Shown here piece by piece: positions 11,764 through 62,661 of a DNA stretch of 64,000 nucleotides. The stretch covers positions 256,410 through 320,409 of the forward strand of contig JBMORP010000006.1 in assembly GCA_049322655.1 (NCBI GenBank), written 5' to 3'. Under the pieces are notes generated by a model. It saw only the letters and a program-made list of their open reading frames with translations, had not been told where the DNA came from and did not search any database. Position 1 is the first letter of the stretch; every line of letters starts with the position of its first letter. The stretch is from Patescibacteria group bacterium. Its GTDB lineage: Bacteria > Patescibacteriota > Microgenomatia > UBA1400 > PJMF01. Made by a program: the position numbers and the translations under genes.

Positions 11764-13794
11764 TTATTCTCCTTTTACTTTTTCAAGCATACCTAGTTTT
11801 TCCAAACCGACCAGTAACAAAAAAGCATCAAATAAAAGATTGCTTTCTTCTTTATTGGCTGTTGGATATGCTAAATAGTCACTGTTACTTTCCTGAGGAA
11901 ACAAAATCACTCCCTGCCCAGGATCTGCTCCTGAACTAACATTCCCTTTACCCATGGTATCAACATTACCTGCCCACCAACCAGGAGCTACTAAAACTGG
12001 GTATTCAGTTTCATCGTTAAATGGATCATGAAACATCTGCGTACCAGCATTCTGCATATGCCCACCAACCACAATACCTGGTTTGTCATGCATATAAAGA
12101 TCATAATTTCTTTTCAAACCAAAGGTCGGCTTGGAAAACGAACCATGATTACCAAGTTTATCTAAAACCGCCAAAGTATAAGGTAAAGCAGCTTCTGGCC
12201 CAACTGCCAACTCAATTGTAGATAAATGGTGAATGAGTGGAATATCAGCGTGACGAGCTAAGTAACTTCCTGGAGCAATTGGATCATCTCCATTTTTCCA
12301 GTTTTCATCCCTTAAATTAGCATCCAATAATAATGCCAAGCCCTTATCCTCTGATCTTGAAATAAATCTTGCTGTCTTATCTAAAACTTCTCTGCGATTG
12401 GCTAGTTTTCCAACCGTACTATCAATCAAGTTTCTTAAATAGATAACCACAGCGTGAGGATTGTTAATCACAAAATCACGTTGAAATTTATTCGCTCTAT
12501 TAAAACCATCTGTTTGTTCGTTGCTACCAAGCCTAACATTAGAAATAAGTTGTAATAAAATTGGTAATTCTGTTTCAATGTTAAATTTGAGGTGAGAATA
12601 AACGGGCTCTCTCTTCAAGTCATCACCGTTATGACCTTTTTCTTCAAGTCTCTTCAAGGCTTTTTTATTGGGTAGACTTTCCATTTCTTCAGGTGTTTCG
12701 GCTGATGAAAAAACATCCCACTCAATAGTTGGTTCAGTTCCAAACTCAGCCAAAACTAACTCTCTCAGCTCGGCAGTCATGCCTTGCTTTTCAGTACTGT
12801 TTAATAAACCCAAACCTTTCTGAGCTAAATCTGCATGTCTCAAAGTTGGTAATGGAGTATGAACTACTTCTTTTGAACGTTTTTTATATTTACCTACTGG
12901 TCTAGTCATCAGGACACTAGTCATTCCTTTACCAGTTGTATAAGGTCTACCCAATCTCACTCCGAACTGATCAACTGGTAAACTCTTATTAACTGATTTA
13001 ATTGTTCCAGAAGAAACCATATAAATCGGGAAAGATGAACCAGCATGATGTTCTTTGCCCACAGCTAACTGATGAATGTGAGCAGAAGCTGCTCCCTCTG
13101 GTCTATTAGCTTCAGATTTTTTAAGTAATTCTTCTCTATTTCCATGCAAAGCATCATATTTGCTTTTGCTGGTGGGATTATGCCTTGTTTCTAAAACTGA
13201 CTCCTGACCATCAGCAAATATAAAAGTCACTTGACCACCATTCAAAATAGTGTCAACATTACAAGCTTCAGCCAATATAGCCCAGGGATCAATCGTAGTA
13301 GACTCATGAGCCCAACCAGGATGGCCCCAATAATGACTAACCATACCAATCACTTTGCCTGCATCAGCTAGTGGCCTTAAAATTTCATCACGAAAATAAT
13401 TAAGTTGTTCCTGAAGGTGCATATTTAAACCAGTCATATTAGTGGTTAAATATTTACTCTTAACACCCTCGATTTCATCTCCCAAAAAAACAATTTTAAC
13501 ATTACTAGTATCAAAAACGATTGGTTCCCCAGCCTCATCATAGCCAACAATAATCTCATCATCTTCCAACAAAAAATCGCGAAGTTTTTTTAGCTCTTCA
13601 TAATCAGTCGCGGCATGACCAATATGTAAATCTCCAATTAAAAGTACTAACAATGGTTCATCTCCTTCAACCCGATACTCCAGATCCATCGTGGGCTGAA
13701 TATCCATAATTAGTTGTTGTTGGAGCTCAATTAATTCTCTTCTTTTTTCATAATGAGTTTTTCTCTTTTGTTCTTTTTCTGCTGCCAATACCAT
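11764..13794 (-). CDS. large hypothetical protein with N-terminal calcineurin-like metallophosphoesterase motifs
   Basis: GDLHIGH and FLGDEIEG resemble metallophosphatase motifs I and II. The remaining roughly 450 aa have no recognisable family. Start lies 3 nt past the upp stop. Confidence 0.5.
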   Translation of the reverse strand: MVLAAEKEQKRKTHYEKRRELIELQQQLIMDIQPTMDLEYRVEGDEPLLVLLIGDLHIGHAATDYEELKKLRDFLLEDDEIIVGYDEAGEPIVFDTSNVKIVFLGDEIEGVKSKYLTTNMTGLNMHLQEQLNYFRDEILRPLADAGKVIGMVSHYWGHPGWAHESTTIDPWAILAEACNVDTILNGGQVTFIFADGQESVLETRHNPTSKSKYDALHGNREELLKKSEANRPEGAASAHIHQLAVGKEHHAGSSFPIYMVSSGTIKSVNKSLPVDQFGVRLGRPYTTGKGMTSVLMTRPVGKYKKRSKEVVHTPLPTLRHADLAQKGLGLLNSTEKQGMTAELRELVLAEFGTEPTIEWDVFSSAETPEEMESLPNKKALKRLEEKGHNGDDLKREPVYSHLKFNIETELPILLQLISNVRLGSNEQTDGFNRANKFQRDFVINNPHAVVIYLRNLIDSTVGKLANRREVLDKTARFISRSEDKGLALLLDANLRDENWKNGDDPIAPGSYLARHADIPLIHHLSTIELAVGPEAALPYTLAVLDKLGNHGSFSKPTFGLKRNYDLYMHDKPGIVVGGHMQNAGTQMFHDPFNDETEYPVLVAPGWWAGNVDTMGKGNVSSGADPGQGVILFPQESNSDYLAYPTANKEESNLLFDAFLLLVGLEKLGMLEKVKGE

Positions 13795-13825
13795 CAGCGA
13801 ATCCTTTCTAAATTAATTTTTTGCC

Positions 13826-13851
13826 AAAAAAAATCCGCCTAATAGGCGGAA
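13826..13851 (-). terminator. rho-independent terminator (TCCGCCT-AATA-GGCGGA with an 8-nt T-run on the minus strand)
   Basis: Hairpin plus T-run downstream of the minus-strand gene 13963..15063. Confidence 0.5.
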
Positions 13852-13962
13852 GTAACACTTAAAAAATTTTTCTGGTCAAAATAAATAAAAACATAACCAG
13901 GGTTTGAGTATATAGATACTAATGTACTTTTTGCAAGCAGCTAAAAAACTTAAATTATCAAG

Positions 13963-46624: not shown

Positions 46625-47422
46625 CTATTCATCAATATGAAGTTCCTCTTCTAGGTAGACCGACTCTTCTTGACCATGTTCGTCGTGACTATGTGGAACC
46701 AAAGCCAAAGTCATATACATCAAAATCACTCCTAACAACAATAAACCAACTGATTTAAATCTATCGACCCCTTTACTTGCTTTGGGTAAAAAGTCGCTGG
46801 CTCCCAAATAAACAAACATACCAGTAGCTATTGCCATTAAAATTCCTTGAGTTGTTTCACCCACAGCGTAGTAATAAACATAAACAGCTCCTACTACAGT
46901 CGATAGTGAAGATAAGAAATTAAGCCAGAAAACTTTTCTTTTAGAAAAACCATTTTTTAACAAAATACCGAAATCACCAATTTCATGAGGAATTTCATGA
47001 AGTAAAGAAGAAACAGCTGTCGCTAAACCCAAGCCAGGATTGATTAAATAAGCGGCTGCAATTGCTACCCCATCAATAAAGTTGTGAACTGTATCGCCAA
47101 TAATAACTAAAAAAGAAGACGAGTGATGATGGCCATGGTCATCATCTTGGTGATGATGTAAATCAAAAATAAAGTTTTCAAACAGATACGAACCAATAAA
47201 ACTCACAAAAACTATTAAAAAAGCTTGTTCACCAATCATATAAACAGCTTCTGGAAGTAAACCTAGAAAAGACACTGTCAATAAAACACCGGCTGCAAAA
47301 GGAGTTGAGTACTTAGACAAAGCTTTGCTCCAACTATTAATTTTCAAAAAAAGAGAAGCTACAACAATACCAGCTACCCCTCCCAATAAAGATAATAAAA
47401 AAATGTTACTTAAATCTGACAT
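46625..47422 (-). CDS. ZIP-family divalent metal (zinc) transporter
   Basis: HEIPHEIGDF signature, His-rich loop (HHHQDDDHGHHHSS), and 8 TM helices. Confidence 0.85.
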   Translation of the reverse strand: MSDLSNIFLLSLLGGVAGIVVASLFLKINSWSKALSKYSTPFAAGVLLTVSFLGLLPEAVYMIGEQAFLIVFVSFIGSYLFENFIFDLHHHQDDDHGHHHSSSFLVIIGDTVHNFIDGVAIAAAYLINPGLGLATAVSSLLHEIPHEIGDFGILLKNGFSKRKVFWLNFLSSLSTVVGAVYVYYYAVGETTQGILMAIATGMFVYLGASDFLPKASKGVDRFKSVGLLLLGVILMYMTLALVPHSHDEHGQEESVYLEEELHIDE

Positions 47423-47571
47423 AAAAAACCCTCTCTACATTTAATTATATAGAAGCTGTAAAGTAGCAAAAAATAAAAATTCAAAAAAATTAACTCAATT
47501 TAAGTTTTTTTATGTTTTAACTCCATTTTAGTAACTAATTTTGTTATAGAATATCTAGTCTCATTTTTATT

Positions 47572-49284
47572 TTAACCAAAAGTAAAAGCATAAATTTCAA
47601 CGTTACCATCAAACTCTATTCTCAGCTCATGTCTACCGGGCTCATCTAGTTTAATTAGTTTATATAAAGTATTTTTCTTAACTTCAACAATTCCATTATC
47701 ATTATCTTCACCCATCCCAGCTATAGCATCATCTAAATAAACTTTCATCTCACCTGCTTTTTCGTCAGTGGGTCTAGCCACTAGAAAAACTTCTCTGGCT
47801 TCAAAATTAAGATACAACTTAGAACCTACCGTTGGATAAGCAAACTCACCATTCACCACCCAGCTGCCTTCATAAGCAAAACCATTAGTTGGCAATAATC
47901 CGGGGACAGTAAAAACTGTTGGTTCTCCTGGTTCAAAACTTTGCGGTGAAACTAAGTTACTAATTCTATCACTTCCCAAATATAACTCTGGAGTTTTGCT
48001 ATAAGTTTGATAATCTGGGTTATCTATGTTGACACTCACTTCAACTCCTGTCTCCTTTAATAAATCTTGAATAATCTGTTCTGTTTCATCATAATCACCC
48101 TCGCCAAAGTGGGTGTAACGAATAACGCCATCCTTATCAACCAAGTATTTGGCTGGCCAATATCTATTTTTATATGCGCGCCAGGTAGAAAAGTTATTAT
48201 CTTGCATAATTGGATACTCTAGACCAAAATCATCAATGGCTTGTTGCAGATTGGCTGGCTCTTTTTCAAAGGCAAATTCTGGACTATGAACGCCAATAAT
48301 CACTAAACCTTGGTCTTGATATTTGGTCCACCAGTTTCTGAGGTAAGGGAATGTTCTTTGACAGTTAATACAAGAATAGGTCCAAAAATCTACCAATATC
48401 ACTTTGCCTTTTAAATCAGCCAAAGTGAGTGGCTCTGAATTGAACCACTCACCACCAGCAACTAATTCTGGAGCTGAGTTTATTTTTTTCATTACATCTG
48501 ACATCGGTTGTCCTTTCTCAAAATCGTCAAGAGATCTAGAGTTAATTTGTTCTAATTCTTGTTTGACCTGTTCGTTATCTTCAAACTTAGTCAAGCCAAC
48601 TCCATAGTTTGGAAATTTTTCTAAAATATATGATTGAAACTGACGATCAACATTAAAATAAATAGCTATCGCAGTCAGAATCATTAACATGCCAAATAAT
48701 TTTTGAATATTACCAGTATTTTTAACCAACCAAGGCACTCTTTGTAATGCCGTTACGCCAACTTTCATGATCAACAACATTGGTAAAGCCGTACCGAGTG
48801 CATAAAATAAAGTAATTAAAAAGGCTTGAGTGTTAACTGAACCAGTCAACGCCAAACTGATAACCGAAGCCAAAATTGGACCAACGCACGGTGTCCATAA
48901 TAGCCCTAAAGATAAACCTACAACAAAACCACCACCAAAGCCAGTTTTTCTTTCAGCAGTTGGGGTTGAGCTAGCCAACTTACTAAAAAGTATTTCTAAT
49001 AAGGCCTGAACTTTGGGAATCAATAAACTCAAACCAAAAGTTGCCAAAATAAAAATTGATATAAATCTTAATGAGCTAGCAGAAATCCCCAAAAATGTAA
49101 CAATCGTCGATAGAAAAAGTGTGAAAAAAGTAAAACTGGCAATAAAACCAACCACTACTCCCAATGGACGTTGTTTGTTGTCTGCGTCAGCAGAAGCCAA
49201 GATAATTGGCAATAAGGGTAGGATGCATGGGGATAAAACAGTGACTATCCCAGCTAAAAAAGCAAAAGCTATTAATAAAATCAT
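47572..49284 (-). CDS. DsbD-like fusion: CcdA-type transmembrane electron transporter plus periplasmic thioredoxin-like (TlpA/ResA) domain plus C-terminal beta-rich domain
   Basis: CcdA Cys pair in TM helices (LSPCILPLLP, WTPCVGPILAS) and a thioredoxin CxxC (WTYSCINCQ); 570 aa. Confidence 0.8.
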   Translation of the reverse strand: MILLIAFAFLAGIVTVLSPCILPLLPIILASADADNKQRPLGVVVGFIASFTFFTLFLSTIVTFLGISASSLRFISIFILATFGLSLLIPKVQALLEILFSKLASSTPTAERKTGFGGGFVVGLSLGLLWTPCVGPILASVISLALTGSVNTQAFLITLFYALGTALPMLLIMKVGVTALQRVPWLVKNTGNIQKLFGMLMILTAIAIYFNVDRQFQSYILEKFPNYGVGLTKFEDNEQVKQELEQINSRSLDDFEKGQPMSDVMKKINSAPELVAGGEWFNSEPLTLADLKGKVILVDFWTYSCINCQRTFPYLRNWWTKYQDQGLVIIGVHSPEFAFEKEPANLQQAIDDFGLEYPIMQDNNFSTWRAYKNRYWPAKYLVDKDGVIRYTHFGEGDYDETEQIIQDLLKETGVEVSVNIDNPDYQTYSKTPELYLGSDRISNLVSPQSFEPGEPTVFTVPGLLPTNGFAYEGSWVVNGEFAYPTVGSKLYLNFEAREVFLVARPTDEKAGEMKVYLDDAIAGMGEDNDNGIVEVKKNTLYKLIKLDEPGRHELRIEFDGNVEIYAFTFG

Positions 49285-49305
49285 AAGTTTTATCCCAAAA
49301 ATTTA

Positions 49306-49848
49306 TTATTTAATGTTCTTTAGTAACTCCTCAACCGAGCCACCATTCCATTTTTTAATTACTTCGCCATTTGCATCAATTTGTACAAAAGTATGTTGGT
49401 AAATAACTCCATATTTATTGGCCAAAGCCTTTTCAGTATTATCAGTGTCAGTATCATTATAGTTAACTTTAATCACAGTTAAATCTGCTGGTAAATCAGC
49501 TTTAATCAAAGCAGCGTCAACTGGCTGACAAGTTGGACACCAATTGGCATAAAAAAATAACACTCTTTTTCCATCATCCTTGGTCATCAAATCTTCTCCA
49601 CCATAAACAACATATTTGCCTGATCCTTCCATCATGGCGCTTTCATCATCTTTTACCATCGTCTCATCTTCTTTCACCATAGCATCAATATCATCTTCCA
49701 TCTTAGTTTCAGCTTCGTCTTTCATCATGGTTACTTCTTCATTCTCCATCATTTTTGAGTCAGTTTCATTTTTTTGCAAAATAAAATAACCAATAACTCC
49801 AACTAAGGCTAAGCCCAATATCAAGACCAATGTATTATTATTTTTCAT
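49306..49848 (-). CDS. membrane-anchored thioredoxin-like protein with Met/Glu-rich low-complexity region
   Basis: WCPTC active site in a thioredoxin fold, preceded by MMENEEVTMMKDEAETKMEDDIDAMVKEDETMVKDDESAMMEG. Confidence 0.7.
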   Translation of the reverse strand: MKNNNTLVLILGLALVGVIGYFILQKNETDSKMMENEEVTMMKDEAETKMEDDIDAMVKEDETMVKDDESAMMEGSGKYVVYGGEDLMTKDDGKRVLFFYANWCPTCQPVDAALIKADLPADLTVIKVNYNDTDTDNTEKALANKYGVIYQHTFVQIDANGEVIKKWNGGSVEELLKNIK

Positions 49849-50550: not shown

Positions 50551-51600
50551 TCACTTATCAATATGTGCCACACCTTCTCCTTGAGCCGCTAAAGACACCA
50601 AAGTAAATTGAGCATTCTTTTGAAATTGCTCGATATTCTTTGCCCCGGTATAAGACATCGCGCTGCGCAAACCACCTACCAAATCATTAATAATAATTTC
50701 TGCCGATCCTTTATATGGAACCATCGTCGTTACTCCCTCTGCACTTCTGAATTCCCCCATTTGTGAACCATTATCTTTCATGTAATCTTCTGAAGCTTGG
50801 CCTCGAGCTTTTTTAACTCCACCGACCACCTCACCAGGAGCTTCTTCTGTCCCAGCCAGCATTGAACCAACCATAATTACTTTAGCTCCAGCAGCGATTG
50901 CTTTAGCAAAATCTGCTGGCTTACGAATTCCTCCATCAGCAATAATCTCTAAACCAGAAGAAACAGTTTCAAAAACAGCTGATAGTTGAGGAAAACCAGC
51001 TCCAGCCACTAATCTAGTAATACACATTCCACCCCCACCAACCCCAACTCTAGCAATCTTTAAACCAGCACTTTTATAAGACATAGCTTGGTCATAACTG
51101 ACAATATTGCCAGCAATCACCGTTAAGTTTAGTTTGGCTTGAATCTCGGCTGCTATTTCAACAATATTCTTCATCCCACCATGAGCCACATCCAACAACA
51201 ACATTTCAGCACCAAGCTTTTTAAATTTTTTAGCATCTTCCATTGCATTTTTAAATCCAATCGAATAGACAGCCTTAATGTTATTTTTTTGCAAACGAGC
51301 ACAAGCATCAAGTGCCTCATCAATAAAAACCCTTGGCATGAAAGTCAGGCCACCTAGCTTGTGCATTAACTTGGCCATTTTTTCACCACTCACAGTATCC
51401 ATTGGGGCTGTCACAATTGGCTTTTTGAGTTTGAATGGACCAAAATTAACTAAGACATCAGTCTCTTTTCTAGAGCTTATTTTCGTTAATGATTGGGGAA
51501 CTAACAAAACGTCGTCATAAGTTAAACTGGCTGGGTGAGTAGTAGTAAGATTCGGCCAGACCTCAGTCTTGCCTAGGGAGTGGTAGAAATTAAAGGACAC
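50551..51600 (-). CDS. IMP dehydrogenase/GMP reductase family protein without CBS subdomain (GuaC-like)
   Basis: LTYDDVLLVP N-terminus, catalytic-loop Cys (GGGGMCITR), and a length of 349 aa typical of GMP reductase. Confidence 0.7.
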   Translation of the reverse strand: MSFNFYHSLGKTEVWPNLTTTHPASLTYDDVLLVPQSLTKISSRKETDVLVNFGPFKLKKPIVTAPMDTVSGEKMAKLMHKLGGLTFMPRVFIDEALDACARLQKNNIKAVYSIGFKNAMEDAKKFKKLGAEMLLLDVAHGGMKNIVEIAAEIQAKLNLTVIAGNIVSYDQAMSYKSAGLKIARVGVGGGGMCITRLVAGAGFPQLSAVFETVSSGLEIIADGGIRKPADFAKAIAAGAKVIMVGSMLAGTEEAPGEVVGGVKKARGQASEDYMKDNGSQMGEFRSAEGVTTMVPYKGSAEIIINDLVGGLRSAMSYTGAKNIEQFQKNAQFTLVSLAAQGEGVAHIDK

Positions 51601-53824: not shown

Positions 53825-53977
53825 AGAAGATCTTGTTCAACATTATGGCAAGAAAAAACTAAACTGTGAAGAATTAACTCCTTAACACAAAAGTTTTTTG
53901 TAATTAAAATTACTTAAAGCTATTATTTAGTTCTTAAACCAGCTATATTATTTTTGTAATTAAACTAACAAACTAAT

Positions 53978-54514
53978 ATGAAAATACAAGCTATAGCTTT
54001 GCCTATTAATAAAATTTTAACCAAACAAACTCTATTCTATTTGACGATCTTTACTCTGCCATTACTTAGCCATGCCAACCAACTCTTGGTTGGAACTGCC
54101 GTTAACTTAATGCTGTTCTTGGGAGCCAAAAACCTCACCCACAAAGAACTGATTCTGTTGGCCATCCTGCCCAGTCTTGGAGCAATCAGTAACGGCGTTT
54201 TATTTGGCTCATTTACCATGTTGCTGATTTATTTTGCTCCAGCTATTTGGTTGGGAAACTATTTGATGATGAGAGTCTTTAACCAAACCAAAAACTTACC
54301 TACCTTAATCAGTATCATTAGCGCAGCCCTAGTTAAAACAGCTTTATTATTTGGAGTAGCCTTAAGTTTAGTCAAACTAAGTTTGGTGCCAACAATTTTT
54401 CTCACAGCAATGGGAACAGTTCAGTTTATTACAGCTACAACTGGGGGAATCTTAGCTAATTTGCTTAGTCAAAGCAAACTTTTTACCGAAACCAAGGAGC
54501 CTGCCAATGACTGA
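53978..54514 (+). CDS. small polytopic membrane protein (5-6 TM helices; ECF S-component-like size), unknown function
   Basis: 178 aa, hydrophobic. Its stop overlaps the downstream hydrogenase-like gene by 8 nt. Confidence 0.5.
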   Translation: MKIQAIALPINKILTKQTLFYLTIFTLPLLSHANQLLVGTAVNLMLFLGAKNLTHKELILLAILPSLGAISNGVLFGSFTMLLIYFAPAIWLGNYLMMRVFNQTKNLPTLISIISAALVKTALLFGVALSLVKLSLVPTIFLTAMGTVQFITATTGGILANLLSQSKLFTETKEPAND

Positions 54515-55415
54515 CCAGCTACCAGTTAAACCAAAAACAGAACCTGAAATCTTAATTGACTTACTAAAAAAAAATCAACCACTAGTGGCAATGCTTGCCC
54601 CATCATTCCCCATTGTTTATGAATTTGCTAACATTGTTGGAAAATTAAAAAGACTTGGTTTTAGCTATGTAGTTGAAGTCACTGCTGGTGCAATGCATAC
54701 CAATGCTGCAGCCATTGAACTACTAAAAAATAATCCTCAAGCTAGAGTTATCACTAGCCCTTGCGCCAGTTTTGTTAGAATGATTAGAACTAAATATCCA
54801 CATTTAGAAAAATATTTAGGCTTTGCTGCAGATTCACCAATGGTCGCTACAGCTAGAATTGTTAAAAAAAAATACCCAAATCACAAACCTGTTTTTATTG
54901 GCCCATGTAATGCCAAAAAACTTGAAGCTAATGAAGATTACCCAGAATTAGAGATTCTGTCAGTAACCTACAAACAAATGCAAACTGTTTTTGACCATTT
55001 TCAACTTCAAGATGACCCAACTGATGAACAGGCAAAACTAGATCTTGAAGAAACTCATACCAGACTCTATCCAATCTCTGGAGGTTTAGCTCAAAGCAGT
55101 GCTGTCAAAGATTTATTAGCAGATGAAGAAATAGAAGTTGTTTCTGGCTGGCAAAATTGTGAGCAAGCTCTCAAAAGATTTGAAACCAGTGACCGAATTA
55201 GACTATTAGATATTCTCTTTTGTGAGGGTGGTTGTATCAATGGACCAGGAATTAATAGCCCTCTTTCTCTGGCTGAACGTAGAGAAAAAATAGTTCAATT
55301 TTGGGAACTGGGTAATAAACAACCAATTCCCATTGTAGAGTTAAATAAAGCTACTCAATTTAAAAAAATTTTTCCAGCTATAAGAAAAGCCCTCACGGGC
55401 TTATTCCATTTTTAA
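54507..55415 (+). CDS. [FeFe]-hydrogenase H-cluster-domain-like protein (minimal, 302 aa) with variant L1 motif TSPC
   Basis: Aligns by eye to the CpI H-domain: APSFPIVYEF..LKRLGFSYVVEV, L1 ITSPCASFV (vs FTSCCPGW), L2 IGPCNAKKLEA (vs MPCTSKKFEA), L3 FCEGGCINGPG (vs MACPGGCVNGGG). All four [4Fe-4S]H Cys ligands and the Lys/Glu of L2 are present. Confidence 0.65.
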   Translation: MTDQLPVKPKTEPEILIDLLKKNQPLVAMLAPSFPIVYEFANIVGKLKRLGFSYVVEVTAGAMHTNAAAIELLKNNPQARVITSPCASFVRMIRTKYPHLEKYLGFAADSPMVATARIVKKKYPNHKPVFIGPCNAKKLEANEDYPELEILSVTYKQMQTVFDHFQLQDDPTDEQAKLDLEETHTRLYPISGGLAQSSAVKDLLADEEIEVVSGWQNCEQALKRFETSDRIRLLDILFCEGGCINGPGINSPLSLAERREKIVQFWELGNKQPIPIVELNKATQFKKIFPAIRKALTGLFHF

Positions 55416-55928
55416 AGTTTCTTGACGTAACCAAGCAATTAAATAAAAAATGTGTTCTCGACTATACTGGTAATTTTTTAAATCAGTTATTTTTACCCAC
55501 TCAGCTTGATGAGTGTGAGTCGGTTTTGTTGGCATAAACTCAGTATCATCAGGAATAATAGCCGTATAACAAGCCACTATGTCACTATTAGCCTGAGTTT
55601 CTTGATCATTTGTTTTAACTCTGTAAACACCAAATAACTCCAATGACGCCTCTAAATTTTTAACTCCAGCATCCCAACGTAACTCTCTAAGAGCCGCATC
55701 CTCAACATTAATGGCATCAGCAAAGGCCCCCTTACCACTAGCCAAAGCCATTTTGCCCCTTATCGGTTTTAACATTACTGCCGTTCGATCGTGATTAAAA
55801 GCCAACACTACCACTACTTCGGCTTTGGCCAACTCACTTTCAGCCAATCTTTCGACTAAATAGCCACTACCAGTGACCTCCTTAGTCAAAAAACCCAACA
55901 ACTCATTGTCTTTATTGATACCAGTCAT
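55401..55928 (-). CDS. NUDIX-like hydrolase (degenerate Nudix box)
   Basis: Partial Nudix-box match: GKGAFADAINVEDAALRELRWDAGV. Confidence 0.4.
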   Translation of the reverse strand: MTGINKDNELLGFLTKEVTGSGYLVERLAESELAKAEVVVVLAFNHDRTAVMLKPIRGKMALASGKGAFADAINVEDAALRELRWDAGVKNLEASLELFGVYRVKTNDQETQANSDIVACYTAIIPDDTEFMPTKPTHTHQAEWVKITDLKNYQYSREHIFYLIAWLRQETLKME

Positions 55929-57430: not shown

Positions 57431-58240
57431 ATGGAACTTCAGCCAAATAGTAATCTGTTAAACTTATCAGGTAAAACTGCAATCGTTACTGGAGGAGCTT
57501 TGGGAATTGGGTTTGGAATTGCTTACCGGTTAGCTGAAGCAGGCGCTAATGTTGTCATCGCCAACCGCAACCAAGAGGACGCTCAACAAGCTGTGCAAAC
57601 CTTAAAAAATAATGGTTGGTCAGCCGAAGCAGTTACTACTGATGTCTCAGTTGAAGATCAGGTCAAAAACTTAGTACAAAAAACAGTAGCATTATTTGGG
57701 AGCATAGATATCTTGGTCAATAATGCAGGAATTTTCCCTTCTATTCCCTTGGCTAAAATGACCAATGCAGACTTTTCCAAAGTAATTGAGATTAATCTCA
57801 AGGGTGTATTTTTGTGCACCAAATATGCCTCAGAGCAAATGATTCAACAAGGCAAAGGAGGAAAAATCATTAACATTACTTCCATTGATGCTCTTCACCC
57901 ATCAAGCATCGGTTTAGCTCATTATGATGCTTCAAAACATGGTGTTTGGGGATTCACCAAAAATGTTGCCTTAGAACTTGCTCAACACCAAATCTGGGTA
58001 AATGCTATTGCTCCTGGTGGAGTAGCTACTCCAGGTGTACAAAAAATGCAGGCCCAAGCACCTGTCGATCCAGCAATCGATATGACCAAAGTTATGGAAG
58101 CTTTCTTAGCCAAAATTCCAATGCATCGCATGGGCGAACCTGACGATATTGGGAAAGTGGCTTTATTTTTAGCTTCAGAGATGTCCTCTTACATGACTGG
58201 CGAACAAATTGTCGTCGATGGAGGCGCGCTGTTGTCCTAA
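57431..58240 (+). CDS. SDR-family oxidoreductase (FabG-like)
   Basis: TGGALGIGFGIA Rossmann motif, NNAG, catalytic YDASK; 269 aa. Strong RBS AGGAGG. Confidence 0.9.
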   Translation: MELQPNSNLLNLSGKTAIVTGGALGIGFGIAYRLAEAGANVVIANRNQEDAQQAVQTLKNNGWSAEAVTTDVSVEDQVKNLVQKTVALFGSIDILVNNAGIFPSIPLAKMTNADFSKVIEINLKGVFLCTKYASEQMIQQGKGGKIINITSIDALHPSSIGLAHYDASKHGVWGFTKNVALELAQHQIWVNAIAPGGVATPGVQKMQAQAPVDPAIDMTKVMEAFLAKIPMHRMGEPDDIGKVALFLASEMSSYMTGEQIVVDGGALLS

Positions 58241-58536: not shown

Positions 58537-58782
58537 TTACTCTTCCACTTTATAGCCCAAAGCCTCAATCGTTTTTTTAATTTTTTCTAAATTAACTTTT
58601 TCTGAATCATATTCCACTTTAGTCTCTGCTTTGGCATAGCTAGTAGTGGCACTGTTTACTCCCGTTAAATCTTCAAGCTCACCATCAATACTCATACTAC
58701 AGCTAGTACAATGCATGCCATTAATCCTCAAAGTAGCTACTGTTCCAGCTTGATTTTTATTTTTTTTAAAAAAATTTAACAT
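58537..58782 (-). CDS. copZ: heavy-metal-associated (HMA) copper chaperone
   Basis: GMHCTSCS MxCxxC motif in an 81-aa ferredoxin-like fold. Confidence 0.8.
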   Translation of the reverse strand: MLNFFKKNKNQAGTVATLRINGMHCTSCSMSIDGELEDLTGVNSATTSYAKAETKVEYDSEKVNLEKIKKTIEALGYKVEE

Positions 58783-58786
58783 ATAG

Positions 58787-59899
58787 TTAGATAACCTCCA
58801 TAATACCTGTGTACATTCCCATCGAACAAGAAAAAGTAAATTTACCTTTTCTGGTTGGGGTAAAAGTGAAACTTTGCGTATCAGTAGATTTTAAATAAGT
58901 ATTAATACCAAATTCCCTAAAAACAAAAGCCAAAGCACAAGAGTAAGTATTGTTACTTTGTAGGGTCATTTCTACTGGTACACCACTTTTCACTTTAATA
59001 TAGTTAGGTTGATAACCACGACTCAAAACATCTATTTTTATTTGTTGAACACCATTTTTTACACCAACACTATTGCCAGCCTGTTCAAATCTATCTGCAG
59101 AAAAAAAATAAGTAATTGGTTGAACAATTTTATTGAGTGTAAGCGGTGAATCAACTACTAATAAAACTCCATTAACACTATAAACAGCCATACCAATGAG
59201 AACGGTTGCCGCAAGCTTAGTAAATTTTTGATACCAACCCTCACTAAGCTTAGCTGTGGCTACACCCAAAATAGCAAATAATGGAGAAGTCCCCAAAATG
59301 AAAGTAAACATAATTGCTGCGCCAACAAAAGGATTGCCAGAGTTAATGGCTAATACCTCCATCGCTTGAGTTACTCCACAAGGAATAAAAATCGTCATCA
59401 AGCCCAATACGGCTGGAGCAAATAAAGCCTGACTTTTACTTGTTCCCCTAATTAATCTTTGAAGAAACTTGGGTGGTTGAAAAGCTAAATGACGAAAAAT
59501 AGGGTGAACATCCAATAAGTTCATGGCTGTGGCAAACATAAAAACAGCAGTGAAAACTTGAAAAGTTAATCTCATGCCTAAACTTAAAGTTATGGTTGAA
59601 CCAAGCAAACCTAGTAAAAAACCCAAAATGGTGTGAGCAACTAACTTAGCCAATAAAAACATCAAGACTGGCAACCAGTCTAATTGATCGAAAGACTGTA
59701 AAGAAAAACTATTTTCTTGTAAAGATTTTAAATATTTTTCTTTCCTCTTGGCTTTTTCTTTAACTTTGTTGTCATCAACTTCATCACGTTCTTGTTCTTT
59801 TTGGTTGGCAACCACACTAGCCAACAAGCCACCTTGCATCGCTAAACAAGATAACCCTCCTGTAGTTAAACCTGTTAGAAAAATAACTAATAAATCCAT
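58787..59899 (-). CDS. membrane protein with N-terminal DsbD/UreH-like transmembrane domain and C-terminal cupredoxin-like soluble domain (putative Cu-handling permease)
   Basis: GLTTGGLSCLAMQGGLL motif in TM1, a second Cys-containing TM segment (IFIPCGVTQAM), and a C-terminal beta-rich domain with a Cys/Met cluster (FSCSMGMYTG). Confidence 0.5.
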   Translation of the reverse strand: MDLLVIFLTGLTTGGLSCLAMQGGLLASVVANQKEQERDEVDDNKVKEKAKRKEKYLKSLQENSFSLQSFDQLDWLPVLMFLLAKLVAHTILGFLLGLLGSTITLSLGMRLTFQVFTAVFMFATAMNLLDVHPIFRHLAFQPPKFLQRLIRGTSKSQALFAPAVLGLMTIFIPCGVTQAMEVLAINSGNPFVGAAIMFTFILGTSPLFAILGVATAKLSEGWYQKFTKLAATVLIGMAVYSVNGVLLVVDSPLTLNKIVQPITYFFSADRFEQAGNSVGVKNGVQQIKIDVLSRGYQPNYIKVKSGVPVEMTLQSNNTYSCALAFVFREFGINTYLKSTDTQSFTFTPTRKGKFTFSCSMGMYTGIMEVI

Positions 59900-59912
59900 A
59901 ATTTTCTCCTTG

Positions 59913-62129
59913 TTATAATTTAATGCTCTTTAACCTCAAAGCATTTAATACCACACTTACACTTGAAAAAGCCATAGCTGCCCCAGCCATCATTGGATTC
60001 AACAGTACCCCAAAAGGCCAATACAATACTCCCATCGCCACTGGAATTAATAACACGTTGTAACCAAAAGCCCAAAACAGGTTTTGGCTGATATTCCTCA
60101 TCGTCGCTTTGGAAAGTTTGATGGCGGTTGGTACCAAACCGATATCACTTCGTAACAAAGTTACTCCAGCTGACTCAATCGCCACATCGGTGCCTCCACC
60201 CATTGCAATCCCCACATCAGCCGCAGCTAGTGCCGGAGCATCATTAATACCATCACCAACCATTGCGACCACTCCAAAATCTTTTCTTAATTGTCGCACC
60301 ACTCGTTCCTTATCTTTTGGCAAAACTTCAGCCACCACTTCATCTATGCCCAATTTATCAGCAATAATTTTGGCAGTTGTTTGGTTATCACCGGTTAACA
60401 TCACGGTTCTAATATTTTCCTCTTTTAATGAATCAATTACTGTAACAGAATTAACTTTTTCTTTATCAGCAATACCCAATATTGCTACTAGTTTTTTAGC
60501 TATCACCACCAGCACTAAAGTCTGGCCATTATTTTTTAATGAATCCACTTTTTCTTGCTCAGCAACAGTCAATTTAACTTTCAACTCTGTCAATAATTTT
60601 TCATTACCCACAGCCACTTGCTTACCATCAACTTGAGCAATCACTCCTTTACCGCCAATATCTTTAAAATCAGTCACTTCACTAAGCTTAACTTTTGGTT
60701 TGAGTAGTTTATCTGCATACTCAGTCAGGGCCGTAGCTAATGGATGATGAGATAATTCTTCAACTTTTTTAATCACTGCCAAAACTTGTTGCTGATTAGT
60801 TGTCATAAAATCAGCTTGCTGAACACGAGGTTTACCTTCTGTTAAGGTGCCGGTTTTATCAAATACAACTGTCTTAACCTTATTAGCCACTTCTAAAGCC
60901 TGAGCATCTTTAATTAAAACTCCCAATTTTGCTCCTTTACCAATCCCCACCATTAATGAAGTCGGTGTTGCTAAACCCAAAGCACATGGACAAGCAATAA
61001 TTAACACATTAATCATGCTCACCAAAGCAAATAATAACCTTGGCTCTGGACCAAAGATCAGCCACCCTACAAAAGTCAAAATTGCTAAAATAATCACTGT
61101 AGGCACAAAATAAGAAGAAATTTTGTCAACTAAAGCCTGAATTTGTGGTCTAGAACCTTGAGCTTCTTTGACCAAACGAATAATACTAGCCAACATGGTT
61201 TCATTGCCCACTTTGGTTGCCTTGATTTCAATACTACCTGATTGGTTGATAGTAGCGCCTACTACTTCATCCTTAACCATTTTCGTAACAGGCAAACTTT
61301 CTCCAGTAACCATACTTTCATCTAATGAAGTTTCACCTTTGATAATCACCCCATCAACTGGAACTTTTTGACCAGGTTTAACTAATAACACATCACCAAT
61401 TTGCACTTGATCAATTGGTACTTCCACCCATTGATTTTTTTTCTTCAACCAAGCAGTTTTGGCCTGTAAATTAAGTAACTCTTTAATCGCTGCTGAAGTT
61501 TTGGCTTTAGCTCTAATTTCCAGAAATTTACCCAATAAAATAAAAGTAATAATGGCAGCCGCTGCCTCAAAATAAACATGAGTATCAAGCCCATGACTCA
61601 TAAACCATTCTTCCCAAAGAGTCACGATTACTGAATAAAAATAAGCCACTGAAGTGCCTAGTACCACTAAAGTATCCATATTAGTAGTTTTATTTTTTAA
61701 ACTAGACCAAGCTCCTTGGTAAAATCTACTACCAGCCCAAAATTGAACTGGGGTAGCTATCAACCATTGGAACCAAGGGTTATAAAAAATAGCAGGTAGA
61801 TTGGGCAACATCCCAGAAAGCAAAACAGTAGAGAATACCCCACCTACTAGCAACTTATTTTTCATCAACTTTAACTCTTTAGCTCGCTCTTGTTCTTGAA
61901 TATCTTCATCTACTTCCAAATGTGCCATGTAGCCCAAAGAATTAACGGCTGCAACTAAATCGGTTGTCGCAGCTTGATTATCATCAAACACTACAGTCGC
62001 CTGCTCATTAGCATAATTAACATTAGCTTCAATCACCCCTTTAGTTTTGGTTAACTTTCTGGTGGTGTTACTAGCACAACTGACACAATGCATCCCAGAA
62101 ACATGAAAAGATATGGTTTGCTTAGACAT
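59913..62129 (-). CDS. copA: copper-translocating P1B-type ATPase
   Basis: N-terminal HMA domain (GMHCVSCA), CPC in TM6 ([12 protein letters not shown]), [17 protein letters not shown]. Confidence 0.9.
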
Positions 62130-62661
62130 ACTTAGTTGGATCCTGTTGAAATAACTTCATACAACCACTGGCACAAAAATAATAAGTTTGATGATCATGA
62201 TCACAACTAAAGCCAGCCGTTTTGGGAGAAATTCTCATCCGACAAACAGGATCATGAACTAAAGGCACTAAGTCGTTGATTTTCATCATCGCCTCCTTAG
62301 TAGATTGACCACTTTCGACTAATTGCTGAATAGTAATCTCTCGCATTAAATCACTGGCTTGAATAAACTTTTTATCAGCTAAGGAATAAAAGACCTGTTT
62401 ACCATCACGACGAGTTTTAACAATGCCAGTATCACGCAATAACATCAGATGTTGGCTAATGTTAGCCTGTGGTAAATCAAGCATTTGGTGAATATCACTG
62501 ACTGATAACTCTTGGTCTCTAATCAGATGAATAATTTCTAAACGCTTGGGATGAGCCAAAGCTTTTAATAACTGTGCATGTAATGCAAATACTTCAGAAT
62601 ACATATTCGATATTATGAATATGTTTTTAAATGATGCAAGTGGGAAAATCATGTTTGACAA
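62122..62661 (-). CDS. ArsR/SmtB-family metalloregulator fused to a C-terminal YHS/TRASH-like metal-binding domain
   Basis: ArsR HTH ([16 protein letters not shown]...[16 protein letters not shown]) and a C-terminal DPVCRM...FCASGC segment. The track start is a TTG; the true start is more likely ATG at 62652 or 62604. Confidence 0.8.

Follow-up and report, generated by a model that had tools for sequence, protein, structure and literature searches.

What does a protein do that keeps the catalytic domain of an [FeFe] hydrogenase and little else, and that is encoded in overlap with a small membrane protein in a CPR bacterium? The question arises from two forward-strand genes in the window analysed here, which is the whole stretch of DNA of 64,000 nucleotides. 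As read from the open reading frames, the first gene (53978..54514, +) encodes a six-helix membrane protein of 178 aa from an orphan sequence family. The second (54507..55415, +) encodes a single-domain [FeFe]-hydrogenase H-cluster-domain protein of 302 aa, identified by PF02906, by AlphaFold2 and Foldseek, by its 838 homologues and by its clade placement. The start of the H-domain gene overlaps the stop of the membrane gene by 8 nt (ATGACTGA, 54507..54514, +), as an earlier note on this DNA had pointed out, and a Shine-Dalgarno sequence, AAGGAG (54494..54499, +), lies 7 nt 5' of the H-domain ATG, within the membrane gene. The overlap implies translational coupling of the two genes, and similar overlaps or abutments of membrane and H-domain genes are present in related loci. 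A sigma-70-like promoter candidate, TTAACA-17-TAAAAT (53882..53910, +), was found 68 nt 5' of the membrane-protein start and matches 10 of the 12 consensus positions; it can be taken as tentative, because the eight sigma-70-like sites in the region are not above the shuffled expectation of 5.7 +/- 2.5. The palindromic hairpin AAGCCC-TCAC-GGGCTT (55387..55402, unstranded) lies at the convergent overlap of the H-domain gene with a NUDIX gene and is a possible bidirectional terminator; the number of hairpin-type terminator sites in the scanned region was not above chance. Thiol-redox and metal-homeostasis genes are abundant around the locus, histidine kinases are encoded elsewhere in the 64-kb window, and a thioredoxin or AhpC gene lies immediately 3' in two relatives.

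The 302-aa protein was matched by PF02906 (Fe_hyd_lg_C) with an E-value of 7.8e-32 and a score of 111 bits (cut-off 22.1); the match spans positions 4-245 of the 245 in the profile, and the Pfam profile search detected no second domain in the protein. The motifs were mapped in CpI numbering from a MAFFT table and from HMMER alignments with CpI and further hydrogenases of solved structure. The L1 motif T83-S84-P85-C86-A87 (54753..54767, +) places TSPCA on TSCCP, so that P85 corresponds to C299 and C86 to C300, a cubane ligand. The L2 motif GPCNAKKLE (G132-E140; 54900..54926, +) falls on MPCTSKKFE, with G132, C134, K137 and E140 at the positions of M353, C355, K358 and E361, and the L3 motif FCEGGCINGPG, starting from F238 (55218..55250, +), falls on ACHGGCVNGGG, with C239 at C499 and C243 at the bridging C503. 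Just before L3, L237 occupies the position of M497 and D235 that of E289 in TamHydS (group D mapping via PMC10407848). The protein contains five cysteines in total: the four ligands C86, C134, C239 and C243 are invariant in the family, and the fifth, C218, is kept in 91 of 120 family members. The [2Fe]-pocket residues A31, P32, S33, P111 and K137, together with E140, are likewise invariant among 37 family sequences with a mean column identity of 59%; A31-P32-S33 correspond to A230, P231 and S232 in CpI, and P111 to P324.

The AlphaFold2 model of the protein has a pLDDT of 88.3, and a Foldseek search of the PDB returned [FeFe]-hydrogenase H-domains, with CbA5H, HydABC and CpI at the top (E about 1e-14, TMq about 0.7). 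The C-terminal amphipathic tail (residues 286-302, KKIFPAIRKALTGLFHF, 55362..55412, +), with a hydrophobic moment of 0.58, has low pLDDT in this model; it is restricted to the closest subclade, where it is conserved in P0001-P0005 and P0014, and it is possibly a helix that touches the membrane or the partner. The homology to the H-domain, the alignment of the four Cys ligands, Lys358 and Glu361, the Pro at the relay Cys299 and the lack of accessory domains had all been proposed in the earlier note and are borne out by these searches, alignments and models. Judged from its sequence, this is a minimal H-cluster-domain protein that keeps every cluster ligand, has Pro at the relay position and lacks accessory domains.

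The Nar1-like identity that the earlier note had considered fails, because the protein has no N-terminal cysteine-cluster domain, it comes from a bacterial host, and the residues in contact with the [2Fe] subsite alone are invariant. It is like Nar1, NARF and IOP in the Fe_hyd_lg_C scaffold, in the four retained Cys ligands and in the lost relay Cys. Those proteins are eukaryotic CIA proteins with an extra Cys-cluster domain at the N-terminus, and we know of no H2 activity for any of them. The CPR family, unlike them, is nested among the prokaryotic hydrogenase groups.

A view of the TSPC motif as a singular oddity has to be given up: 105 of 120 family members carry TSPC[PA], TSPC being near-universal in the family, and Pro299 also occurs in 26 of 111 multidomain representatives of the sensory type. 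The active-site shell is of the non-group-A kind, with Gly, Leu, Met and Pro at the positions of M353, M497, Q325 and C299, respectively, and matches the shell type of the sensory groups B, C and D. As for the proton route of group A, the S319 position is Gly or Ala in the alignment, the R286 position falls on a non-basic residue (by hand mapping from the HMMER alignment), and E279 and E282 were sought at the family positions aligned to 278-282, where no conserved Glu was found. The relay of group D was also sought and is absent: the position of TamHydS E252 (the 'GGV' Val position) is an invariant Leu194 and that of E289 is Asp235. Since the group A and group D proton pathways are both missing, a slow hydrogenase is expected, if the protein is matured. 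Group C and D enzymes without Cys299 still turn over H2 (PMC11803613, PMC10407848).

A total of 838 homologues define a large family in Patescibacteria (Microgenomates), with Pacebacteria, Roizmanbacteria, Beckwithbacteria, Shapirobacteria and Microgenomates as the named hosts, and the exact 302-aa protein is annotated from a Patescibacteria MAG. Family members are mostly about 260 aa long, and all are within 240-320 aa. In an exhaustive profile search, the next ranks were a second tier of minimal proteins of 256-316 aa, followed by multidomain proteins; sensory-type proteins were the best non-minimal matches to the CPR protein (33-36% identity), and in these multidomain relatives the H-domain begins near residue 62 of proteins of 560-900 aa. 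The second-tier locus L091 looks bacterial and L090 possibly archaeal. The NCBIfam models of groups A and B scored the 302-aa protein far under their cut-offs. Based on a neighbour-joining tree, 33 of 36 minimal proteins form one clade with a bootstrap of 0.94 under a tolerant definition, and the CPR family and the other minimal proteins (about 286 aa) stand beside multidomain C/D-like proteins in this tree, which was built without the published group E sequences Fm and Na. A profile scan of the genome collection for H-domains gave at least 600 matches, mostly non-CPR relatives, and served for comparison and not for CPR statistics. One candidate, P0159 (4122 aa, 14 H-domain stretches), was rejected as unrelated, being a eukaryote-like polyprotein made up of group A hydrogenases in tandem.

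The 178-aa partner was modelled as six transmembrane helices with a pLDDT of 84.1, and the model predicts the six-helix fold of an ECF S-component, with no sequence match to known S-component families in Pfam, NCBIfam or PDB sequences. The conserved polar residues Q35, N43, S66, T80, W91, N94, K120, Q149 and T152 are located, according to helix topology, in the outer half and the centre of the bundle, and the partner family has no conserved Cys or His ligands. No ABC ATPase is encoded in the 64-kb window, and no recurrent EcfA or EcfT genes were found in 52 flanks. Missing linkage does not exclude such a module, since group II ECF systems have theirs at a separate genomic site. The partner resembles the solitary S-components BtuM, BioY, RibU and ThiT in its size, in the polar residues of the outer half and in having no adjacent energising module; unlike CbiM and NikM, it has no N-terminal metal-binding motif, and unlike known S-components, its family is linked to hydrogenase genes and not to vitamin-salvage genes. 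Homologues of the partner in Nanoarchaeota and Woesearchaeota are 40-47% identical to it.

The pairing of the two genes is kept in 11 of 12 CPR loci and in two of three second-tier minimal loci. The partner adjoins the H-domain gene in L001-L003, L005 and L084-L089 and, in the second tier, in L091 and L130; an adjacent partner is missing in L004 (CPR-type) and L090 (second-tier). In the Woesearchaeota locus L092, a partner homologue adjoins a hydC-hydB-hydA cluster. When loci were picked by the membrane gene alone, in a metagenome scan for the partner family that used the narrower alignment A4, 15 of the 18 loci flanked on each side by 3.5 kb or more had an H-domain gene at most 3.5 kb away. 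HydA, HydB and HydC are the only recurrent neighbours of the partner family; no ferredoxin or other electron-partner gene is linked to the pair, and no conserved regulator gene adjoins it in any locus. Of 78 hydrogenase loci in ordinary bacteria, 77 have no member of the partner family, a comparison confounded by phylogeny (small symbionts versus other bacteria). In CPR and DPANN, members of the partner family are found with several groups of [FeFe] hydrogenases; because the groups differ and nothing else recurs nearby, a hydrogenase-specific accessory factor is suggested. The membrane-associated complex that had been proposed from the overlap stands as far as the tight coupling of the two genes is concerned; the predicted S-component fold and the link of the family to hydrogenases point to more than a generic anchor.

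Maturation of such a protein is a question of its own. In agreement with the earlier claim that HydE, HydF and HydG are absent from the window, no radical-SAM CX3CX2C motif and no HydF-like motif was found in window ORFs of at least 100 aa, and a P-loop was found in one only; none of the three maturases was found in about 60 flanks of related loci either. The window covers about 64 kb, whereas its contig is at least 652 kb long, so that the absence of maturases there says little about the genome. Full maturase sets were reported in 5 of 130 hydrogenase-bearing archaeal genomes, and an alternative pathway was proposed (PMC11216029).

Taken as a whole, the pair is best read, at a rough probability of 0.55, as a CPR two-gene operon for a low-turnover minimal hydrogenase and a hydrogenase-specific accessory membrane protein. 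The sequences and models themselves show the homology, the ligands, the predicted folds, the family distribution and the gene linkage. The cytoplasmic H-domain protein would bind a [4Fe-4S] cubane via C86, C134, C239 and C243, and A31-P32-S33, S110-P111, K137, Y188 and the bridging C243 would form the pocket of the [2Fe] subsite, the binding of which we infer, as we do H2 turnover. If matured, the protein would act as a slow hydrogenase, most plausibly venting fermentative reductant as H2. Translational coupling would keep the synthesis of the membrane protein in step with that of the hydrogenase, and the membrane partner, through a presumed physical interaction of the two proteins, may dock the enzyme at the membrane, or it may capture a putative substrate and deliver something needed by the H-cluster.

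The alternative that survives best, although unlikely, is a protein that carries the [4Fe-4S] cluster alone and performs no H2 chemistry, serving on the membrane protein to carry electrons, to deliver Fe-S clusters or to sense redox state or O2. The absence of maturases from the window and flanks, the loss of the relay Cys and of a recognisable proton pathway, and the thiol-redox and metal-homeostasis neighbourhood, with thioredoxin or AhpC downstream in two relatives, are in favour of it. However, it is hard to explain on these terms why A230, P231, S232, P324 and K358, which contact the [2Fe] subsite only, are invariant along with C503. The nearest characterised relatives that share the active-site shell bind [2Fe] and turn over H2, the partner family is also found beside canonical catalytic HydABC clusters, and the N-terminal cluster domain of Nar1 is missing from the protein.

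A rather improbable reading, and an entirely inferential one, gives the partner a role in cofactor salvage: it would import a building block of the H-cluster, such as a pre-formed [2Fe] precursor or an Fe(CO)2(CN) synthon of the HydG type, scavenged from the host or neighbouring cells, and hand it to the apo-hydrogenase, the direct acceptor, at the cytoplasmic face. The S-component fold is typical of high-affinity cofactor-capture proteins, including the solitary BtuM and BioY, and the polar residues of the partner sit where S-components bind their substrates. The few archaeal genomes with full maturase sets (PMC11216029) and the lack of maturases in every flank would fit this reading, as would the linkage of the partner to hydrogenases of different groups whose sole common trait is the H-cluster. 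Its absence from 77 of 78 loci of ordinary bacteria is a further point in favour, but this distribution, set between small symbionts and other bacteria, is phylogenetically confounded, and the partner has no conserved Cys or His ligands. To our knowledge, there is no free natural pool of such labile organometallic species, which counts against salvage.

It is highly improbable that the pair consists of a transporter and a processing subunit, in which the membrane protein would import a vitamin-like compound and the H-domain protein would be an Fe-S reductase of that substrate and no hydrogenase. S-component genes often cluster with salvage enzymes for their own substrate, and the two genes are tightly coupled in translation, as this reading would have it. 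However, the partner family stands beside complete HydABC clusters in archaea and is therefore tied to hydrogenases as such, and we know of no Fe_hyd_lg_C protein that is a small-molecule reductase. Least probable is a stand-alone H2 sensor that signals via the membrane protein: the sensory role raised in the earlier note keeps in its favour an active-site shell (G353, L497, non-Cys 299) like that of groups C and D, which are putatively sensory, and the histidine kinases elsewhere in the window, but it is unlikely because the protein has no signalling domain, be it PAS, kinase, phosphatase or another output domain, no conserved regulator is adjacent, and no signalling role of the S-component fold is known to us.

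CPR bacteria are usually portrayed with very little redox metabolism, and with the family described here the ultraminimal clade would extend to a large bacterial radiation. The Pro at the relay position is a fixed and recurrent solution, which makes it a useful natural variant in work on how protons reach the H-cluster. A widely conserved accessory gene with a predicted cofactor-transporter fold tracks [FeFe] hydrogenases in lineages that were reported to lack HydEFG, and it makes maturase-independent assembly of the H-cluster testable with two genes. If salvage by the partner were true, CPR and DPANN without HydEFG would have in it their missing 'alternative maturation route'. The novelty is smaller than the earlier note had assumed, because both a '6TM' neighbour and minimal hydrogenases of this size had been published before for DPANN (PMC11216029); literature searches for the CPR [FeFe] family, hyd6TM and CPR maturases returned nothing beyond that paper.

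Compared with the group A enzymes (CpI, CrHydA1 and DdHydAB), the CPR protein shares the H-domain fold, the four Cys ligands, K358, E361, A230-P231-S232 and P324. Unlike them, it has Pro for C299, Gly for M353, Leu for M497, Met for Q325 and Tyr for F417, lacks the proton pathway of E279, E282, S319 and R286, and has no F-cluster domains. The resemblance to group C (TmHydS) and group D (TamHydS) is found in the active site: residue 299 is not Cys, residues 353 and 497 are not Met, SPM takes the place of SPQ, and 'GP' follows Cys503 (PMC11803613). What these proteins have and the CPR protein lacks are an N-terminal [4Fe-4S] domain, a C-terminal cluster and, in group C, a PAS or signalling domain. 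The CPR protein also differs in that its gene does not adjoin one for a catalytic hydrogenase, and from group D in having Leu194 in place of the relay residue E252.

For the membrane partner, the closest published description is that of hyd6TM, which in the sections of PMC11216029 drawn on here is an uncharacterised membrane protein of 4 to 6 helices found beside archaeal group A [FeFe] hydrogenases and not beside group E. Members of both are membrane proteins about 180 aa long whose genes adjoin those of [FeFe] hydrogenases in DPANN archaea, and the partner family is likely the same as hyd6TM, being matched by description and not by the sequences of that paper. Unlike hyd6TM, the partner gene is located in bacteria, upstream of a minimal non-group-A hydrogenase gene that it overlaps. 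Relative to the account of hyd6TM in those same sections, the S-component fold assignment is new.

The closest known system for the H-domain protein is group E, the 'ultraminimal' [FeFe] hydrogenases, which were defined on DPANN archaeal genomes with a mean length of 286 aa and placed beside group C (Greening et al. 2024, Cell; PMC11216029). Fm, the group E enzyme of 'Ca. Forterrea multitransposorum', is about 33 kDa, contains one [4Fe-4S] cluster, binds [2Fe]adt and evolves H2 (PMC11216029). Like group E, the CPR protein consists of the H-domain only, is of similar size (302 aa), has one [4Fe-4S] site with accessory clusters lacking, has non-canonical proton-transfer residues and comes from an ultra-small, genome-reduced host. 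The published position of group E is next to group C; in the neighbour-joining tree, the CPR family stands with the other minimal proteins next to multidomain sensory-type proteins. Unlike group E, it is hosted by a CPR bacterium and not by a DPANN archaeon, its family has invariant Thr65-Asn66 and Asp235 and a near-universal Pro299, and an upstream membrane gene is obligatory and translationally coupled. Comparison by description and not by sequence makes the CPR clade the probable counterpart, in bacteria, of the DPANN 'group E'.

A conserved, translationally coupled pair joins a minimal H-cluster-domain protein to a membrane protein for which an S-component fold is predicted. The two ORFs described in the earlier note, together with their overlap, are both present: the partner gene (53978-54514, plus strand) encodes the 178-aa membrane protein and the H-domain gene (54507-55415, plus strand) encodes the 302-aa protein, which is identical to a database protein annotated from a 652-kb contig of a Patescibacteria MAG. 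The H-domain ATG is located inside the final codons of the partner gene, giving an 8-nt overlap (ATGACTGA), and AAGGAG is found 7 nt 5' of this ATG. A NUDIX hydrolase gene (55401-55928, minus strand) converges on the 3' end of the H-domain gene with a 15-nt overlap. The G+C content of the window is ~35%.

PF02906, covered over its entire profile (E=7.8e-32), is the sole Pfam domain of the 302-aa protein; the NCBIfam group A and group B models match it via the H-domain only, far under their cut-offs. Residues were mapped by HMMER alignments to solved hydrogenases, using the single sequence and a 37-member family profile, and by a MAFFT table, all of which agree. In the numbering of CpI, a prototypical group A hydrogenase, A31-P32-S33 corresponds to A230-P231-S232, P85 to C299, C86 to C300, S110-P111-M112 to S323-P324-Q325, G132 to M353, C134 to C355, K137 to K358, E140 to E361, Y188 to F417, L237 to M497, C239 to C499, and C243 to C503. 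The top PDB matches of the confident AlphaFold2 model (pLDDT 88.3) are all [FeFe] hydrogenases. What the gene encodes is a genuine H-cluster domain, without anything else. The H-domain assignment of the earlier note is thus borne out by the significant full-profile match, and its placement of Cys, Lys and Glu in the L1, L2 and L3 motifs by both alignment methods; every element it had observed is correct, with the correction that a fifth cysteine, C218 (window 55158-55160, motif SGW.NC), is also there, kept in 91 of 120 family members and without counterpart in CpI.

The 302-aa protein belongs to a large CPR family with 838 homologues. None of the best 120 has anything beyond the H-domain; their lengths are 240-320 aa (260-279 aa in 87), and TSPC[PA] occurs in 105; the named homologues belong to Pacebacteria, Roizmanbacteria, Beckwithbacteria, Shapirobacteria and Microgenomates. 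The mapped residues are invariant in the 37-sequence alignment, the mean column identity of which is only 59%. Since several of them contact only the [2Fe] subsite in characterised enzymes, this pattern is expected if the subsite is present. Set beside it, the main conservative rival, that the 302-aa protein is a cubane-only redox protein, appears unlikely.

As read from the alignments, the protein has a sensory-type active site, without a recognisable proton route. G353, L497, SPM and 'GP' are common to the CPR family and group B/C/D-like proteins, and the CPR family lacks C299, S319 and the glutamates E279 and E282; the R286 position, hand-mapped from the HMMER alignment, holds a non-basic residue in the 302-aa protein. 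According to mapping via PMC10407848, the group D relay residue E252 falls at the 'GGV' valine position, an invariant Leu in the CPR family, and E289 corresponds to Asp235 of the 302-aa protein. Tyr188 and Asp235, both invariant, are candidate proton carriers. Pro299 is not unique to the CPR family: at this position the nearest multidomain representatives carry Ala (42), Pro (26), Thr (16), Ser (15) or Cys (9), and minimal proteins carry Pro (7), Ala (6), Asn (5) or Val (4). Slow H2 turnover persists with Ala at this position (PMC11803613, PMC10407848), so a slow hydrogenase is a reasonable expectation for the CPR family. We infer that the H-domain protein holds the full H-cluster and would work in this way. 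Many canonical hydrogenases whose genes adjoin those of sensory-type proteins (genome-scan loci L006-L083) have 'TSCSP', not 'TSCCP', as L1.

Of the two proteins, the partner is the more informative. S-components are cofactor-capture proteins, which hold substrates in the outer half and centre of their helix bundle. The fold predicted for the partner is of this kind, and by helix topology its conserved polar residues (Q35, N43, S66, T80, W91, N94, K120, Q149, T152) would occupy that same region. A profile search found 311 homologues, including Nanoarchaeota and Woesearchaeota proteins with 40-47% identity.

In CPR and DPANN, this membrane family shows a specific linkage to genes for [FeFe] hydrogenases belonging to several groups. 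The partner is directly upstream, overlapping or abutting, in loci L001-L003, L005 and L084-L089; the sole exception among CPR loci with upstream sequence is L004, a short contig, where it is absent. Of three second-tier minimal loci, two (L091, L130) likewise have the partner next to the H-domain gene. Unlike in the CPR operon, the L130 pair is divergent: the partner homologue (2385-2939) is 52 nt from a minus-strand 301-aa minimal H-domain ORF whose L1 reads 'STTCP' and whose L2, 'APCPAKREE', is unusual. The partner homologue of a Woesearchaeota genome is transcribed divergently from a hydC-hydB-hydA cluster, which is complete. Eighty metagenome loci were chosen by the membrane gene alone, and 18 of them have flanks of 3.5 kb or more on both sides; in 15 of these 18, an H-domain gene was within 3.5 kb of the membrane gene. 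Where a hydrogenase gene was nearby (29 metagenome loci), it was immediately adjacent on the same strand in 12 and at 1-3.2 kb in 15, a spacing that fits a divergent hydCBA cluster; most of these hydrogenases are group A proteins of ~560-640 aa with canonical TTCCP/MPCTAKKFE motifs. When all neighbours were clustered, only HydA, HydC-like and HydB-like genes were recurrent; no ECF A/T module, radical-SAM maturase or HydF was present among the neighbours. Among 78 loci of ordinary bacteria, a partner homologue was near a hydrogenase in only one, L059 of Spirochaetota (13187-13855, minus strand; E=1e-12), diverged but retaining the signature motifs; 1.4 kb away, a multidomain H-domain protein of the sensory type (688 aa) is encoded.

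The membrane protein is probably an accessory factor of the hydrogenase, which it would either dock or supply with something that the cofactor needs. That it specifically provides something the H-cluster needs is a tempting reading, since cofactor capture is the S-component role, the accompanied hydrogenase groups have only the H-cluster in common, and a full HydEFG set is present in only 5 of 130 hydrogenase-bearing archaeal genomes (PMC11216029). We nevertheless hold this narrower role to be quite improbable. The Nar1-like and sensory readings raised in the earlier note found no support.

Metal and thiol-redox homeostasis genes dominate the surroundings of the pair. The genes of a copper or heavy-metal homeostasis cluster (58537-62661, minus strand) encode a metallochaperone with an HMA domain (58537-58782), a membrane protein in which DsbD_2 and cupredoxin are fused (58787-59899), an HMA-domain P1B-type ATPase (59913-62129) and a fusion of an ArsR-family regulator with a YHS domain (62122-62661). 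Also on the minus strand (46625-49848) are genes for a ZIP metal transporter (46625-47422), a fusion of DsbD_TM, AhpC/TSA and Thioredoxin_10 that is 570 aa long (47572-49284) and a protein with a thioredoxin domain (49306-49848). NUDIX and short-chain dehydrogenase genes (the latter at 57431-58240, plus strand, in the window) lie no more than a few kb from the pair in the window and in the unrelated CPR loci L084, L086, L088 and L089, in varying order and strand, and thioredoxin or AhpC genes are directly 3' of it in L087 and L089; these recurring neighbours may reflect a loose functional neighbourhood or chance. A 349-aa IMPDH/GMP-reductase-domain protein (50551-51600, minus strand), matched end to end by its Pfam profile with no separate CBS match listed, could be either a GMP reductase or an IMPDH that lacks CBS. 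The minus strand carries most of the window's genes, and GC skew is negative in 32 of 32 2-kb windows (1-64000; cumulative -5.25). An unusual strand compositional disparity was reported for a Microgenomates genome (PMC7143001).

Three layers emerged when 1.8 billion cluster representatives were searched exhaustively with the profile: the CPR family itself; a second tier of minimal proteins of 256-316 aa, typically 286-290 aa, lysine-rich and with a conserved C-terminal G[IL]DF.RKF; and multidomain proteins of 480-900 aa, with the H-domain from near residue 62. P0159 (4122 aa), which surfaced via summed scores alone, is unrelated to the CPR family; in this giant eukaryote-like polyprotein, about seven group A H-domains (TSCCA), nearly identical to one another, stand in tandem ahead of flavodoxin-like and CysJ/FNR-like modules. 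In a neighbour-joining tree of HMM-aligned columns, one clade holds 33 of 36 minimal proteins (bootstrap 0.94, tolerant definition). The multidomain set is next to this clade, group B is more distant and group A is the outermost.

The literature searched held no description of the CPR family. The 'novel membrane-tethered hydrogenase module' of the earlier note was right in part, but DPANN archaea had already provided examples of this kind. The features that appear to be new are a branch in bacteria (CPR), a Pro299 that is fixed, an H-domain gene obligately coupled to the membrane gene, and the S-component fold predicted for the latter's product. Group E was described from a survey of archaeal genomes as 'ultraminimal' DPANN enzymes with a mean length of 286 aa, sister to group C; one of them, Fm, evolves H2 and binds [2Fe]adt as well as one [4Fe-4S] cluster (Greening et al., 2024, PMC11216029); no mention of Patescibacteria was found in that paper. 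The tree position described there matches that of the CPR family, which, compared with group E through this published description, may belong in it.
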